A DNA stretch of 64,000 nt from IMG/VR virus record IMGVR_UViG_3300046501_000246, one strand, 5' to 3'. Below the pieces are notes generated by a model that was not told where the DNA came from, searched no databases, and saw only the letters and a program-made list of their open reading frames with translations. Below, one piece after another: positions 28,756 through 43,304 of this stretch. Every line of letters begins with the position of its first letter. Within the stretch, counting starts at the first letter, position 1. Made by a program: the position numbers and the translations under genes. Source of the DNA: a virus.

Positions 28756-29044
28756 GCTATCTACTTCAACTTCTCATTTGCGATTCGACATAAACCAAGA
28801 AAGTTTCTTTAGTTTTTCTATGCCGATTTCTTCGATAGCGACTTTAACCGCTTTGGTCAAAGCTACACAGAACTCGCTCTTATAAACTGTTTCGTCATCC
28901 ATGTCAAGTCTCCGTGGTCGTTTTGAAGAACTTTTCCAACACTAATGTTTCTGCGCTGAACGTGTCTTCGAATTTACGGACTGGTTTCTTTAAACCGCCA
29001 TCGTTAGGCATTGCTCTAAACATTAGTTTCTCCTTCAAAATTTA

Positions 29045-29277
29045 ACCAGAAAGTGTGCTGTTACGCCAAATTCTCTGAGGGTCTTACGTAGCATCTAAGG
29101 GGATTCTTGTCCATACCCTCCCCAAATTAATTCGAAGGCTTCGCCCGACGAACGTACCACGCAAACTGCGCTAATTCCTTCCCCTGTTGACCTATTCAGA
29201 CTGTGGACCAGAACTGACGTATTCAACTCGAAACTCTTTAAAAGATGGCTGCTTCTAGGCCAACTTCCTTAACTGGT
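29045..29277 (-). ncRNA. Structured RNA mimicking the 23S rRNA H43-H44 (uL11-binding) domain with a 166-nt insertion
   Basis: AGGAAGTTGGCCTAGAAGCAGCCATCTTTTAAAGAGT ... GCGTAACAGCACACT, closed by ACCAG/CTGGT. Confidence 0.8.
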
Positions 29278-29281
29278 ATTC

Positions 29282-29373
29282 TGGCAGAGGGCAAGGGATT
29301 CGAACCCTCGTACCGCGTTTCCACGGTAATCTCCTTAGCAGGGAGACGGTTTAAGCCACTCACCCAACCCTCT
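29282..29373 (-). tRNA. tRNA-Ser(GCT)
   Basis: TCTCC-CTGCTAA-GGAGA, long variable arm, G73 CCA. Confidence 0.95.
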
Positions 29374-29378
29374 AAATT

Positions 29379-29454
29379 TGGAGACGAGAGCCAGAATCGA
29401 ACTGGCGATTATCGGATTTGCAGTCCAACGCCTAAACCATTCAGCCTTCCCGTC
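29379..29454 (-). tRNA. tRNA-Cys(GCA)
   Basis: TTGGA-CTGCAAA-TCCGA, U73 CCA. Confidence 0.93.
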
Positions 29455-29461
29455 GTCTTAG

Positions 29462-30085
29462 TTAAATTACGCCAGCGCCGCCAGCAGCTTTAGCACGATC
29501 TTCATCACTGAATTCCGAAGCCCACATCAAGCCGCTATCAGCTGAAGCATACAAAGCACTACGGTTTGCTACTGACTTAAATGCTTTGCCGTAATTGCCC
29601 TTAGTCATATTGAGAGTTGAACCGCTCAATACACCTAGACCGCCACTCTGACCGAACGCGTCAAAATCAGCGCCGATAAAGACAACGTCATAATTCTTTG
29701 CCTTGAAATCGTCAATAGACTTTTTGGCATTTTCCATAGTAATTTCGCGGCTCGCATTTTCAAGGCCGTCAGTTACAACAACGATAGAAGCCTTCTTAGG
29801 AGCCTTCAGATAGATGGTCTGAGCCAGAGTGCCAATAGCGTCGAACAAAGGTGTCATCCCGCGTGGCAGAACTTCATTAGCAGCAATCGGAGTCCATTCC
29901 TTGATCTTCACTTCGGAACGAATAACTTTAAAAGGTTCCTGATTGTCAAAAACGGCAACTGTGATATCGCCCTTCTTAACACCATTTTCACTTAGTGCGG
30001 CGGCGTAAGCATTTACCGCGCCAATGGTTTCGGTCCAGTTAGCGGACATAGAACCGGAGCGGTCGATAAGAATATAAATCTTCAA
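29462..30085 (-). CDS. von Willebrand factor A domain protein
   Basis: LIDRSGSM MIDAS, GMTPLFDAIG, VVTDGLENASRE; TTG start outside tRNA-Ser. Confidence 0.85.
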   Translation of the reverse strand: MKIYILIDRSGSMSANWTETIGAVNAYAAALSENGVKKGDITVAVFDNQEPFKVIRSEVKIKEWTPIAANEVLPRGMTPLFDAIGTLAQTIYLKAPKKASIVVVTDGLENASREITMENAKKSIDDFKAKNYDVVFIGADFDAFGQSGGLGVLSGSTLNMTKGNYGKAFKSVANRSALYASADSGLMWASEFSDEDRAKAAGGAGVI

Positions 30086-30105
30086 TTTAGTTCTTTCTGT
30101 GTAAT

Positions 30106-30615: not shown

Positions 30616-30990
30616 TTACTCACCAATTCTCTTTGCGTCTCTAAGAAGGGTAAGTGTATCTATTTCTTGTGGTGAAAAATACTCATTAACAAGTTCAATC
30701 ACTACATCTTCATCATAATCCTTACAGCTAAAAATGTCAAGATAAAAATCTCCGTCACAATCGACAAAGTGACCTGTAATATTTGACGTTTCAATCATTT
30801 GGATAAAGGAAATGCCAGCTTTGATCGGATCATGCGTTGCGAAACGTTCGATCCAAATCGGGCCGTATTTGACCATATCAATCTTTTCGACAAGCTCATC
30901 CACGAACTTAGCGATGTGTTCCTTAGACGTTACGGCAGGAATAGAACCGGCTCTGGCGTCGATAACGATATGCTTGCCCCAATAGTTCAT
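30616..30990 (-). CDS. speD: S-adenosylmethionine decarboxylase proenzyme family protein
   Basis: GKHIVID, IETSNITGH autocleavage-site pattern, LDIFSCK. Confidence 0.85.
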   Translation of the reverse strand: MNYWGKHIVIDARAGSIPAVTSKEHIAKFVDELVEKIDMVKYGPIWIERFATHDPIKAGISFIQMIETSNITGHFVDCDGDFYLDIFSCKDYDEDVVIELVNEYFSPQEIDTLTLLRDAKRIGE

Positions 30991-32930: not shown

Positions 32931-33004
32931 TGGTGGGATTACCCGGAATCGAACCGAGGTAAAAGAGTTTAGAATTCCCTGCTCTGCCATTGAGCTATAA
33001 TCCC
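32931..33004 (-). tRNA. Amber suppressor-type tRNA (anticodon CTA)
   Basis: GGGATTA/TAATCCC acceptor, loop TTCTAAA, canonical T-arm, A73 CCA; weak anticodon stem. Confidence 0.8.
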
Positions 33005-38517: not shown

Positions 38518-39732
38518 TTAAACAAATTTGTAATAAGGATCGAGGTATGGAACCATGTTCGCTGCGACGACAGCAGCCATATTGGCATGATCTGTTACGC
38601 CGGGGTGAATCTGATCACTTGGATAAGTCGTAAAGTCGCCAGCAGCAGCATTAATGTCATGGTACTGATCGATTAGACCATCAGCGCCAGCAGCTAGCCA
38701 TGCGTTGTAATCATTCCTTACAATATTTCTAGCACTATCGTAAGTTCCGCGCGGGATAATCGATGTGGCATGAATTCTGAGGCGATTGCCGTAAGGCCCG
38801 ATCAGGCCGCGAGCATAACTCGCCAGATCGGTAAATCTGGTTTTCATCGTCGCTAATGAAGCACTGTTGGCAATATCGTTAGTGCCTAATTGAATTAATA
38901 GGTCTGTGCAATAAGGCCACAATTGCTTCTGCAACGGAGCACTAGCTAGTTGCTGGTTTCCTAATGTGTTGGCATCGATAGTCTGTTTATGCCAAGGAAA
39001 GACAACACCATTAACGTTCTGCATCGCTCTGGTTAGAAAGCCTTGAGTCGTGGAAGTGTTAGTATCGTTTAGGTAAGTTGCAATGCTATCACCAACAATA
39101 CAAATAGCAGGCATAGGCACATCTGGAATACCTAAAATAAGGGCGGGCCAAATCGCAGGACCAGAGCCTGTGCCGCTGTTGTTCAGCGAGCCGTTGCTCA
39201 TTAACTGGTTTCCAGATACTGTTCTAAAACCTTGGCTGGCAATACTGTTCAAAGTCATAGCACTAAAGCTGTCAGTATCACTTGGTACAGTTCTATAAAA
39301 ACGTGTATAATTTCTAGAATTCTTGGCCCACGTTATATTGATTTCATCGCTAATAATAAGGCCAGAATTTACGAGGTCAGCCGTGGTGGAACCGCCATCC
39401 CATGTTGCACGCGTCGTAATAGTCCCGTTTTCTACTGATCTTTGCCAAGTGGACGTAGCTGCCGCAGCACCTGATTCAACTCCTGAGCCAGCAGTAATTT
39501 TAAATTGTACATCTACAATTTTAATTCTAGAACAGTTAGCATTACCAATGTCGTGCCCGTTTCTACCTTGGTTGGCAGCATAAGAGCTAGTTTTTTGCAC
39601 CGCGCTTCCATTAGGAACGCCGGTAAAACCTGCAATCAACTGGTGATTGACAGGCTTTGGGTAAACCTTTCCGCTGATCGCGGAAATGTTAGCTGGTGCA
39701 ATGTTTCTTTTTTTATTTTTTGAAATAGGCAT
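38518..39732 (-). CDS. SGNH/GDSL hydrolase (probable esterase)
   Basis: IVGDSIA, LGTND, DQIHP; starts MPISKNKKRN. Confidence 0.85.
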   Translation of the reverse strand: MPISKNKKRNIAPANISAISGKVYPKPVNHQLIAGFTGVPNGSAVQKTSSYAANQGRNGHDIGNANCSRIKIVDVQFKITAGSGVESGAAAATSTWQRSVENGTITTRATWDGGSTTADLVNSGLIISDEINITWAKNSRNYTRFYRTVPSDTDSFSAMTLNSIASQGFRTVSGNQLMSNGSLNNSGTGSGPAIWPALILGIPDVPMPAICIVGDSIATYLNDTNTSTTQGFLTRAMQNVNGVVFPWHKQTIDANTLGNQQLASAPLQKQLWPYCTDLLIQLGTNDIANSASLATMKTRFTDLASYARGLIGPYGNRLRIHATSIIPRGTYDSARNIVRNDYNAWLAAGADGLIDQYHDINAAAGDFTTYPSDQIHPGVTDHANMAAVVAANMVPYLDPYYKFV

Positions 39733-42700
39733 TATGCTGTTACCGTAAGTGAGACAAAATAATCTTTAATATCGATGCCACGAGTTTGACGAAGGATACA
39801 TCCAACGGTCGAACCGTTAGTGACTACAGCCGAACCACGTGCGATATCGCCGTTTGAGTTGACGTAGATAGCTCCACCAGTATAAGCCGTTGGCGCTGTA
39901 GCTGAGTTAAGTAGAACGCGAGTCTCGTTGTTTAAGAGAGCGGGCTGATCAACAATAACGGCGTCTAGCGCAGTGCTGGTAGCTGATAAAGTTCCTGTAG
40001 CCGTTAAGACTGACATAGGAGTTGCTAAGTCACCAGTTCTGGCGATAGGAGTAGACGTTGCATAAGTATCATCATATGCAAGGTTAGTTACTGTGCCATC
40101 TGTAACAACGATGTGGATACGATCTACACGGCTGATCAAACAACCCATGTCGGCGGTCTGGATAACATAGCTAGGACCCGTTGCACCATCGATCCAACGG
40201 CAGTCATAACCCAAATGCTCGGACCAATTAGCTAGCTGAACAACGGGACGGTGACGACGCCATTGATATGAGCGAGTAATTGTTGCACCCGGAAACTGAG
40301 CCAAGATCGCAGATGTATCAAACTCAGTATCTGTGCCGTCAAGTGATTGACCAACGGCGCGAGTTCCAGTGACCACGGCGCGCGTAACAATCGGAGGAGG
40401 AGCAACAACTACGCCCTTGTAGATAAAGTGATCGGACCAAGTGAAGCTCTGCATCGTACCAGCAGTTGGTACATTAGTATCAGTACGTCTCAAAGTGGTT
40501 GTGACGTTGTGGAACACAATACCTCTGAAAATACCTGAAGTAGGTCTGTCAATGCTGATGCCGTTGGCACACTTCCAAATCAATTCGTCATGAACCGCGA
40601 TATCGGCACGATAAGGCTTACCAACGTAACCAGAAACAGAAATACCAGAATAAGAGTGGGCTCTGTTAATGTCGTACCAAGTGTTGTCGTAAATTTCGTG
40701 ACTCAGTGAGCCGCCTTGGTTATCGTAACCACCAATACCGTAACCAAATGAGTAGCTATTCATTTTGGCATGAGTACATTTATTACGGCAGAATACGTGG
40801 AAGTCACCTTCGTCTGTACCCTTTACGAAGTTATTACCGTCTAGTTTATTGTCATGACTATAGACATAGCTCGCCATGTTCGTAACGAGGCAACCCTTAC
40901 CTGAGCTAGTTTTAACGCTAGCCATGTCGAGGAAACAGCCGCGTGCGATGAAACCACGGTTTTTAGTCGTGAAACGATCTTCACGTAACTGAACCGCGTC
41001 ACCTTCGGGAGAGAAGACTGGCTTGGTGTTAACCGTATCTAGAATTACTCTATCTGTGTTATCTAGGTAAATACCATCGGACCAAACACGATCTAGTGTA
41101 ACTCTACGAAGTGTAATGTCGTTACCGTTTTGGAAGAACAAGCCTTGTGAGTTTTCATTCTTCGCGACATAGCCGCAAGGATCGAAGAAGCAATCTTCGA
41201 TGAGCCAGTTGCTACCCTGACGCTGCTGAAGGCCGCGCTGGTTGCCAGCAATGTTCAGGTTTTTAATCGTAACATTGCTTAGGCCTTGAGTGCCGTCTGT
41301 GTATTGGTCGATACCGAAAGTAACACCAGTGCCAATGGTTGGATAACCACCAGTGCCATAAGCATCATAGGTGCGGCTCGCGCCAACAACTAGAGCAGTG
41401 GCCCAAGACGAACCACGCTTAAGGAGGGCGGAACCACTTGAAGTGATTGAACCAGTTCCGGTTAGATTCTGCTTTGCCGTGTCAGGAGTTTGACCATCGA
41501 AACCATCATTACCACCGGCTAGATCGTAATATGTTGCTGGACCTAAAACAGTTAGTGGAGCAGAATAAGCCGTGGTTGAACCAATGCCGTTTGTTGCTGT
41601 TACGCCGACACGAATTCTCTTACCAACATCGCCAGTGGCGGGAACATAGATAGAAGTGGTTGCGCCAGAGACGTTGGCCCAATCGCCAGCATTTAGCGTA
41701 GCTTCTAACTGAACCTGCATCGCGAAAGTGGTTGGCTGGTGATTCCACGAACCAAGTGTGATGTTGTGAGCCACACCGACTCGCGTCTCAGTCGCTGTGA
41801 TGGCCGGAATAACTAGATTGGCAGGCGCAAGGGTTTGAGCCGTAGAGCCTTCTAGAGTGATACCAGCTGTCGTGACATTGTGTGTAAAGCTCGTGTTTGA
41901 ATAGGTAACTTTGGCAGTAATAGCTTTACCGGCGTGTTCGGCGCGAGACGTAAATTTATTTTTACCAAGTGCAAGACCTGTGTAAGCGCCCCAAGGAACA
42001 TCAATGTAGGACTGGCCAGCAGTGGGATCAACCGTGAAGTTATTAGAACCAGACCCAATGTTTGTCATGGCAAGTCTTATACGAAGGAGATCAGTACTGG
42101 CCCACGCGCCTAAATCGGCAGTCACAGAGGTTGTGATCACACCTGTCGTGGCAGGAATAGCTGCGGTTCCCAATGTGCCGTGAACTAGTTGAACTTCTGA
42201 GCCTTGAACCGTGCCGGCTGAGTCGACTCGTGCCGCATAAATTCTAACGCTCATCTGTGAGTTAGGGCTTGAGCTTTTAATAGTTGCAGAATAAAGCTGC
42301 GGCCCATCGTTCTGACCAGCGGCGGTAGTACCGGGCAAGTAGTAGTAATCACTTTCAGTTGTGAAAGGTGAAACAGAAGAAGCGTTTGTGTTAGAACCAC
42401 CATATGCAGATGTCGAAAATCCTCTGGTATAGTTTTGACCTTGAGGGAGTGTGCCGAAAGCTGCTACGGTCTGAGCATAAAATCTTTTTGGCGATCTAGT
42501 GTCGTTAATTTTAATACCATCAGCTTGCCATTCCCAAGCTGCCTCTTTAGCAAAATTAGTGTAAACACCCGGAACGACTGCAATTTCAGAGCCGATAAGG
42601 TTAGTTCCAGATAATGAAGGGGCTGTGGTTACAGCCGTGTCTAAATAAGCAATAGGTCCGATAGCATTGGCACTAACCCAAGCCGATGTGCCAGCAGTAT

Positions 42701-43304
42701 TAACAGCTGCAACTTGAGCCGTAATATTGTCAAAGTCATCGTCTTCTTGAAGTGTATAAGTGCTTGCGTTCGCGCCGGGGATAAGGTACGAGCCTCTGAG
42801 CCAACGATATAGGAAAGTCGTTGGGTTATTGGCCCAAGTTCCCGGATTAACTGTTAGAGTGCTTCCGACAATGGCTGAACCAGTTGTGACAGGGGCAACA
42901 GTATTGGCGGCAAGGAGGTCCCAATGCCAACCCGTAACGTTTTTAATTAGGAAAGCTGAAGCTGTTACTTTAAGGGTGTGGTCGATACCGCGTGTGCCGA
43001 AAGCTGTGAAATCGTAAGTGAAGTCACCATTGGCATCAGTAACGGCAGTTTTAGCCGCAGCGCCATCGAGTGAAAGGGAAACGTTCTGGCCTTCGACAAG
43101 ATTGCCGGGAGAAAGCAAACGACCTGTAACAACTGGCGTCGTATCTGTTCTGACGAGCAAACTAGCGCCGGTTCCGCCGCCGCTGTTAATGTCGGAGATT
43201 TGAACTTTGTAAGGTACACCATTATCATCTACAAGAAGTAATGATCCTGTAGCGATAGCGTCAACCGGGGCTGGTGGTAAAGTTTCTACTGAAACGCGTG
43301 CCAT
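39732..43304 (-). CDS. Large adhesin/depolymerase: Ig-like repeats plus beta-helix
   Basis: Four PxxxG...VG..L....G.W...Y.W repeats around a PbH1-type region. Confidence 0.78.
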   Translation of the reverse strand: MARVSVETLPPAPVDAIATGSLLLVDDNGVPYKVQISDINSGGGTGASLLVRTDTTPVVTGRLLSPGNLVEGQNVSLSLDGAAAKTAVTDANGDFTYDFTAFGTRGIDHTLKVTASAFLIKNVTGWHWDLLAANTVAPVTTGSAIVGSTLTVNPGTWANNPTTFLYRWLRGSYLIPGANASTYTLQEDDDFDNITAQVAAVNTAGTSAWVSANAIGPIAYLDTAVTTAPSLSGTNLIGSEIAVVPGVYTNFAKEAAWEWQADGIKINDTRSPKRFYAQTVAAFGTLPQGQNYTRGFSTSAYGGSNTNASSVSPFTTESDYYYLPGTTAAGQNDGPQLYSATIKSSSPNSQMSVRIYAARVDSAGTVQGSEVQLVHGTLGTAAIPATTGVITTSVTADLGAWASTDLLRIRLAMTNIGSGSNNFTVDPTAGQSYIDVPWGAYTGLALGKNKFTSRAEHAGKAITAKVTYSNTSFTHNVTTAGITLEGSTAQTLAPANLVIPAITATETRVGVAHNITLGSWNHQPTTFAMQVQLEATLNAGDWANVSGATTSIYVPATGDVGKRIRVGVTATNGIGSTTAYSAPLTVLGPATYYDLAGGNDGFDGQTPDTAKQNLTGTGSITSSGSALLKRGSSWATALVVGASRTYDAYGTGGYPTIGTGVTFGIDQYTDGTQGLSNVTIKNLNIAGNQRGLQQRQGSNWLIEDCFFDPCGYVAKNENSQGLFFQNGNDITLRRVTLDRVWSDGIYLDNTDRVILDTVNTKPVFSPEGDAVQLREDRFTTKNRGFIARGCFLDMASVKTSSGKGCLVTNMASYVYSHDNKLDGNNFVKGTDEGDFHVFCRNKCTHAKMNSYSFGYGIGGYDNQGGSLSHEIYDNTWYDINRAHSYSGISVSGYVGKPYRADIAVHDELIWKCANGISIDRPTSGIFRGIVFHNVTTTLRRTDTNVPTAGTMQSFTWSDHFIYKGVVVAPPPIVTRAVVTGTRAVGQSLDGTDTEFDTSAILAQFPGATITRSYQWRRHRPVVQLANWSEHLGYDCRWIDGATGPSYVIQTADMGCLISRVDRIHIVVTDGTVTNLAYDDTYATSTPIARTGDLATPMSVLTATGTLSATSTALDAVIVDQPALLNNETRVLLNSATAPTAYTGGAIYVNSNGDIARGSAVVTNGSTVGCILRQTRGIDIKDYFVSLTVTA

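Follow-up and report, generated by a model that had tools for sequence, protein, structure and literature searches.

The GTPase-associated centre (GAC) of 23S rRNA is the seat of ribosomal protein uL11 and a contact site for EF-G, EF-Tu, IF2, RF1/RF3, and the RelA-activating tRNA; it is also the target of thiopeptide antibiotics and of at least one toxin. The isolated 58-nt rRNA fragment covering positions 1051-1108 (E. coli numbering, used throughout) folds and binds uL11 tightly by itself. Off-ribosome RNAs that imitate an rRNA protein-binding site are represented by the leaders of ribosomal-protein operons, such as the L10 leader (RF00557), which are cis-acting 5' UTRs of cellular ribosomal-protein genes with a loose resemblance to rRNA. 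GOLLD and ROOL are phage-borne, structured non-coding RNAs of unknown function, which are found near tRNAs, span several hundred nucleotides, and contain no rRNA-like domain. Phage tRNA clusters, in turn, replace or evade host tRNAs that are hit by defence nucleases. We know of no mimic of the uL11 site, and to our knowledge a functional ribosomal RNA domain has not previously been found in a virus as a separate copy maintained by selection.

Analysis of a 64-kb window (the whole stretch of viral DNA considered here, from a large tailed phage) revealed a 233-nt non-coding RNA on the minus strand, the ends of which jointly rebuild the piece of 23S rRNA that is bound by uL11 and met by translation factors. 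Its 5-bp closing stem encloses a near-copy of helices H43 and H44. With the GAC of 23S rRNA (the 58-nt uL11/thiostrepton fragment) the phage element shares the sequence of H43/H44, including the loops with A1067 and A1095, the 1082:1086 pair, A1084/A1085, U1060, A1088, the 1072/(1092-1099) triple, and G1055:C1104. It differs from the GAC in that it is not part of an rRNA but is encoded in phage tRNA clusters; its closing stem is short and of free sequence, so that neither the uL10 site nor Kt-42 is present; U1090 and G1091 are separated by an arm of 37-380 nt; and there is an extra UUUG and a replacement of U1101 by A. In contrast to the ribosomal-protein leaders, the element is a near-exact copy, is phage-borne, lies among tRNAs, and has no adjoining ribosomal-protein gene whose 5' UTR it could form. 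It shows no match in sequence or structure to GOLLD or ROOL. The setting is that of the tRNA clusters evading defence nucleases, and the logic is the same too, a component of translation being supplied as a copy; unlike a phage tRNA, however, a copied rRNA domain cannot enter the ribosome and can therefore act only as a free ligand-binding surface. New here are the covariation seen in the tertiary triple, the insert-linked A1101/UUUG signature, the form without an insert, and the anatomy of the arm class to which the window element belongs, as well as the negative search for neighbour genes, the finding that the nearest relatives lack the element, and a weak link to suppressor tRNAs.

Layout of the locus

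The minus strand carries, in order, an ORF ending at 29462, tRNA-Cys, tRNA-Ser, a 4-nt spacer, the element, two small coupled ORFs, and more tRNAs (Table 1). The element itself consists of ACCAG, a UU bulge, AAG, the copy of 1055-1090, a 162-nt insert, UUUG, the copy of 1091-1104, UUU, and CUGGU. Over 36-37 nt, identity of the H43-side half with E. coli 23S rRNA is 89-92%, and this is observed in all 5426 complete E. coli genomes. A preliminary description of this DNA had reported the sequences and coordinates of the two GAC-like halves, the retention of the A1067 and A1095 equivalents, a position directly after the CCA of tRNA-Ser, and the absence of further rRNA from the window; all of these observations hold, the tRNA ending at 29282, four bases upstream of the element.

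Table 1. Features of the rRNA-like element and its surroundings, in the order of the minus strand; rRNA positions are those of E. coli 23S rRNA
Feature	Position	Strand	Remarks
tRNA(CUA), amber-suppressor type	32931-33004	-	ARAGORN tRNA-Pyl; same tRNA cluster as element
tRNA-Cys(GCA)	29379-29454	-	Upstream, same transcription direction; ARAGORN; Rfam tRNA, 55.5 bits
tRNA-Ser(GCU), CCA encoded	29282-29373	-	ARAGORN, Rfam
Spacer GAAU (4 nt), tRNA-Ser to element	29281-29278	-	Sequence
Whole element, 233 nt	29277-29045	-
5-bp closing stem, ACCAG / CUGGU	29277-29273 with 29049-29045	-
Closing H42-like stem, 5' strand: ACCAG, UU bulge, AAG (to G1055)	29268-29277	-	Stem covaries in family
H43-side half, AGGAAGUUGGCCUAGAAGCAGCCAUCUUUUAAAGAGU	29269-29233	-
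H43 copy (1057-1081)	29242-29266	-	A1067 = 29256; 1058:1080 is A:U here
Junction 1082-1090	29233-29241	-	U1082:A1086 pair, A1084, A1085, G1087, A1088, G1089, U1090
Insert domain, 162 nt, class B	29071-29232	-	Comparison, alifold
Pa helix UUC/GAA, 3 bp, adjoins core	29232-29230 with 29073-29071	-	100% paired, 4 pair types
Tandem G.A pairs	29229-29228 with 29075-29074	-
Pb local hairpin	29227-29186	-
Pc helix AGGG/CCCU	29185-29182 with 29081-29078	-	94% paired, compensatory changes
Pd helix, 10 bp	29164-29155 with 29093-29084	-	Covaries in 8 members
Hairpin GGC-GAA-GCC inside Pd	29152-29131	-	Conserved
Hairpin GGGGA...UCCCC inside Pd	29123-29099	-	Hairpin at same position in relatives
UUUG linker 5' of G1091	29067-29070	-	Signature of insert-bearing members
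H44-side half, GCGUAACAGCACACU	29066-29052	-
H44 copy (1091-1102)	29055-29066	-	A1095 = 29062; 1101 is A, U in rRNA
A1103 and closing stem, 3' strand (C1104, UUU, CUGGU)	29045-29054	-
39-codon ORF	28904-29023	-	GAAGGAG ribosome-binding site; starts 22 nt past element; context only
42-codon ORF	28902-28774	-	Coupled to 39-codon ORF

At gathering thresholds, Rfam finds 20 tRNAs in the 64-kb window and nothing else, rRNA included. At E <= 10 it adds a partial 66-nt LSU match, in which the H43 part is aligned with the archaeal LSU model at 12.8 bits (gathering score 50); no full-length 23S gene surrounds the element, which does not belong to the LSU rRNA families (RF02541/RF02540). The Rfam comparison proposed in the preliminary description thus yields no full-length match to an existing family. 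The same description had considered membership in GOLLD, which can be discarded: neither GOLLD (RF01998) nor ROOL (RF03087), nor any intron or leader, matches the region 28950-29400 even at E <= 10. Inspection of the insert by eye for other rRNA-like words (SRL, H99-like) gave none that was backed by a covariance-model search. The two small downstream ORFs have no PHROG match. The ORF upstream of tRNA-Cys (about 212 aa, 29462-30100, minus strand) lies between tRNA genes and matches phrog_7371, whose annotation is function-less, with E 1.5e-35; in the window, the tRNA cluster is interleaved with protein genes.

The phage is a large siphovirus, as seen from its tape measure, tail fibre J, and portal proteins, the latter being 42-49% identical to portals of 100-150-kb phages of Alphaproteobacteria and Microcystis. 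In its five nearest named relatives by portal (Mwe-JY26, vB_EliS-L02, RcXuper, Cp1R7A-A1, and Lacusarx) the element is absent, as determined by the same search that recovers it in Ralstonia phage RSP15 and Aeromonas phage 4_4572, and it is therefore dispensable for this phage type and represents a patchily distributed accessory. Promoter-like sites were detected upstream on the minus strand, at 30740 and 35157, and a search for a terminator-like site between tRNA-Ser and the element found none; the element is probably co-transcribed with the tRNA cluster.

A phage RNA family with a selected GAC fold

A blastn search identified the same motif in unannotated intergenic DNA beside tRNA genes of RSP15 and 4_4572. 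Scanning IMG/VR with patterns built around the H43 loop or the H44 hairpin gave at least 173 complete elements of one shared architecture (at least 145 unique, at least 127 after clustering), with lengths of 118-449 nt among the complete matches listed. An exhaustive IMG/VR scan with a narrower variant pattern produced 61 loci, about a quarter of them already known from the broader scans. Further carriers are the phages GAP32, CBB, Serratia BF, Erwinia pEa_SNUABM phages, Yersinia fHe-Yen9-04, XacN1, XbC2, pf16, Acinetobacter ME3, one Vibrio phage, and one Paenibacillus phage; the element is annotated in none of the named carriers. A scan of prokaryotes, with one genome per species (185,579 species, 596 Gb), gave 69 matches. 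Full elements account for 34 of these and lie mostly on MAG contigs rich in tRNAs. A further 32 of the 69 lack the H43 half and were rejected, since their number equals the chance expectation for 18-mers in 596 Gb. The family is essentially restricted to phages and mobile elements.

A covariance model (R1), seeded with 25 short members and with the window element left out, matches the latter over the full model length with 69.4 bits and E 8e-16, as the sole match in 64 kb, which is far beyond chance. The window element displays all family signatures, namely the closing stem, the H43 copy, the insertion after U1090, UUUG, and the H44 copy with A1101. Its closest relative among the matches listed is carried by at least four near-identical contigs from different metagenomes (L004, L007, L012, and L014), where A1095 is replaced by C. 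Rfam 15 contains no family for a phage GAC-copy RNA, and no description of such an RNA was found in the full-text literature that is accessible without subscription.

The evidence for structure is comparative; the minimum-free-energy fold of the element alone (RNAfold) is ordinary and indistinguishable from shuffles (z = 0.44). In the alignment of 25 members, 88% of cells in the core structure are paired, versus 70% in shuffles, and 13 of the 19 core pairs have changed on both sides; none of 500 shuffles reaches the observed values, and the class alignment agrees with this result. All eight pairs of the closing stem covary in the same alignment, with changes on both sides. Compensatory changes maintain helices H43 and H44 and the 1082:1086 pair of the GAC fold, and the tertiary triple and the A-minor contact A1085/(1055:1104) are kept as well. 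In particular, 1058:1080 occurs as UA, AU, GC, and CG, 1082:1086 switches from UA to CG, and 1092:1099 from CG to UA, so that the covariation proposed as a check is seen in homologues at all of these pairs.

Positions 1072, 1092, and 1099 correspond to the known base triple that reportedly holds the two GAC hairpins together. Among the 145 unique members listed, 1072/1092/1099 is CCG in 142 and UUA in three, and the mixed state does not occur. Although the flanks of L118 and L031 are nearly identical, none of the three bases is the same in these two members. The three bases change as a unit, and the tertiary fold is therefore under selection.

Positions U1060, G1071, A1084, A1085, and A1088 are invariant or nearly so among the members listed, and A1084/A1085 are invariant in alignment A1. 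In E. coli, A1085 makes an A-minor triple with G1055=C1104 (PMC1919483), and this receptor, 1055:1104, is GC in 133 and AU in eight of the unique members listed. Samples unbiased by the search pattern retain A1095 in 87 of 88 members, with an almost invariant H44 loop, and A1067 in 44 of 54, with G in eight. The H42-like stem has 5-9 bp and no conserved sequence (all 8 pairs vary), and the uL10 site and Kt-42 are therefore not copied. The preliminary description had interpreted the element as a selected stand-alone mimic and not as debris; the large family, the compensatory changes, the closing stem, and the covariation of the triple bear out this interpretation.

Same-strand tRNAs are present at 125 of the 173 loci listed, opposite-strand tRNAs alone at none, and at 61 of the 173 a tRNA lies within 15 nt of the element. 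Both the abutment and the strand bias fit release by tRNA-processing enzymes. Same-strand tRNAs are the sole constant neighbours at these loci: in an all-against-all blastp comparison of proteins encoded within 3 kb on either side at the 127 loci listed, the largest cluster spans five loci. The absence of a recurring neighbour protein suggests that the partner of the RNA is probably supplied by the host or by a phage gene outside these neighbourhoods.

Anatomy of the insert arm

The arm starts at the same point, after U1090, in all 145 insert-bearing members listed, and all 145 have A at position 1101 (U in rRNA). Among the unique members, UUU precedes the linker G in 138 of 145, and the linker G itself is also kept in 138. 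Pairing of the linker G with C1102, as drawn by RNAalifold, was rejected, since C1102 stays the same in six of the seven cases in which this G has become A; the native G1087:C1102 pairing is thus kept. The inserts of the members listed measure about 37 to 380 nt and form distinct classes with their own conserved motifs and covarying helices. The class of the window element is also found in RSP15, GAP32, CBB, and several uncultured phages.

At the base of the insert, the tandem G.A pairs, a 3-nt bulge, and Pc match the sequence pattern of a k-turn/k-junction. The pattern NNC-RA... / ...CCC-YNA-GA-GNN fits 12 members of class B at the sequence level, geometry apart, and both Pa and Pc covary. 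Helix Pd has 8-10 bp and lies directly 5' of GACCC, and its sequence is completely different in eight members. Five insert helices had been proposed in the preliminary description, three of which stand: TACGT/ACGTA forms part of the 10-bp Pd, covarying completely in eight relatives, the GGC-GAA-GCC hairpin is conserved in position, and at the position of GGGGA/UCCCC a hairpin is conserved in relatives. The other two are wrong or unsupported, as GAGGGT/ACCCTC conflicts with the covariation-supported Pc AGGG/CCCU, and TTCTGGTCC/GGACAAGAA, with 8 of 9 pairs, is not conserved in the closest relative among the matches listed (L004).

Insert-free versions of about 70 nt, in which U1101 is kept, were detected in viral contigs without surrounding LSU rRNA (L060 and L121). 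Their existence identifies the core as the common functional unit and the arm as an accessory. In one of them (L060, 4352-4425, minus strand), position 1095 is C.

Other variations of the arm were noted. A second hairpin is inserted inside H43, between 1077 and 1079, in several members (L031, L114, L049, L077, L134, and others). Another insert class, present at about 25 of the loci listed (e.g. L002, 1720-1760, L003, L059, and L163), ends with CACCCCGUAAnUGGUAAGG; its arm begins with a purine-rich internal loop GAAG/CAAAG, its inner stem covaries as CCG/CGG, CCA/UGG, and CCU/AGG, and its loops are GNRA or UAAN.

Possible functions

Most likely, the element functions away from the ribosome by imitating the GAC, and we assign a probability of roughly one half to the reading that the free copy captures a ligand of this site, most probably host uL11, as a sponge or decoy. 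A stable non-coding RNA would be transcribed along with the phage tRNA cluster and freed by the enzymes that trim the adjoining tRNA-Ser. Its two ends would fold into the three-dimensional structure of the GAC (the top of H42, H43, and H44), with the accessory structured arm sprouting between U1090 and G1091, and the RNA could then present, off the ribosome, the same surface as the ribosomal site. It would most probably capture host uL11, and with it possibly the factors docking there, and so might alter the control of host translation during infection. An effect on RelA, binding of translational GTPases, or decoying of a defence is conceivable. Titration of uL10-bL12, another suggestion of the preliminary description, is unlikely, judging from the non-conserved H42 part. 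Phages are known to acquire bL12 domains, another part of the same stalk region (PMC6375957).

Binding of uL11 appears the most economical reading because the family preserves the nucleotides that build an autonomous uL11-binding fold. It is favoured further by the retention of the exposed loop bases A1095 and A1067 and by the absence of a conserved protein neighbour, which points to a host partner. On the other hand, the arm, inserted in the 5' strand of H44 beside A1088, together with U1101A and UUUG could alter the surface seen by uL11 or the factors; about 15% of unbiased members have G in place of A1067; and the five nearest named relatives manage without the element. Moreover, uL11 is mostly ribosome-bound, which makes sponge action within one infection cycle hard to explain. 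If imitation of the GAC is as widespread among phages as the family suggests, phages would have a hitherto overlooked means of manipulating or protecting the translation of the host, and some of the non-coding DNA in their tRNA clusters, so far unexplained, would thereby be given a function. The element would also provide a natural, compact RNA tool for probing the GAC, and the cultured carriers RSP15, 4_4572, GAP32, CBB, pf16, and XacN1 make it directly testable.

Capture of a different ligand is conceivable but rather doubtful: the free copy might absorb a host defence or a competitor toxin that modifies or cuts H43/H44, much as phage tRNAs are believed to stand in for, or protect, the tRNAs that anticodon nucleases attack. 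An enzyme aimed at this site is known in the Rhs toxin Tre23, which attaches ADP-ribose to H44 at 1095-1098 and blocks the GTPase of EF-G (PMC8661411), and the almost invariant H44 loop, the location in tRNA clusters, the patchy, accessory-like distribution, and the spread of carriers over phages of many host phyla are all consistent with a decoy of this kind. However, Tre23 is an inter-bacterial weapon, not known as an anti-phage system, no phage-defence system targeting the GAC was found in the literature searched, and a stoichiometric decoy must compete with tens of thousands of ribosomes.

It is also unlikely that the rRNA-like fold serves only as a handle, stabilising the RNA or recruiting a protecting protein, with the variable insert as the working part. 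Such a division of labour would suit the insert classes (about 37-380 nt) with motifs and covarying helices of their own, and the members with a second insert inside H43. It is at odds with the insert-free members and with the fact that the rRNA-like core is the only universally conserved part, down to exposed loop bases that would be superfluous for a mere scaffold.

A further lead, improbable as it stands, concerns translation termination. By tying up uL11, or RF1 via uL11, the RNA might weaken RF1-dependent termination at UAG and aid a phage amber-suppressor tRNA, so that the phage would turn on read-through or recoding of chosen genes through an RNA sponge and a suppressor tRNA; if true, a virus would here be controlling the meaning of a stop codon by means of an RNA. 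Limiting L11 reportedly raises read-through of UAG and lowers that of UGA. Domain 1 of RF1 touches uL11's N-terminal domain (PMC3677378). The window carries a tRNA(CUA) on the same strand as the element, and CUA tRNAs occur at 13 of 68 mimic loci versus five of 77 phage tRNA loci that served as controls and hold at least 5 tRNAs (p = 0.025), about 2-3 times more frequently, the controls being matched neither for phage size nor for habitat; UCA tRNAs number 0 versus 2. Per tRNA, though, the enrichment is not significant (13/877 vs 5/750, p = 0.15), and at least 80% of the sampled mimic loci, which are partial contigs, show no CUA tRNA. The link to suppressor tRNAs is suggestive per locus, not per tRNA, and represents a lead rather than a result.

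Very little speaks for a cis-acting leader that regulates the small downstream ORFs in the way in which ribosomal-protein mRNA leaders imitate rRNA sites. The 39-codon ORF has a good ribosome-binding site and begins 22 nt past the closing stem, but the lack of a conserved downstream gene in the 127 representative loci listed largely refutes this explanation, many members have tRNAs on both sides, and no ribosomal-protein gene lies near the window element. Finally, the possibility of a functionless fragment of host 23S rDNA acquired by the phage, which the high identity to 23S over 36-37 nt might suggest, is refuted by the comparative data, namely the compensatory changes, the triple changing as a unit, the self-closing stem, and the family signatures A1101, UUUG, and fixed insertion point among the 145 members listed, and no other rRNA sequence accompanies the element in the window.

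As a minor observation on the same phage, a 1190-aa protein encoded at 39732-43304 on the minus strand matches phrog_36166, a family with a function-less annotation, along that family's full length, with 1091 bits.
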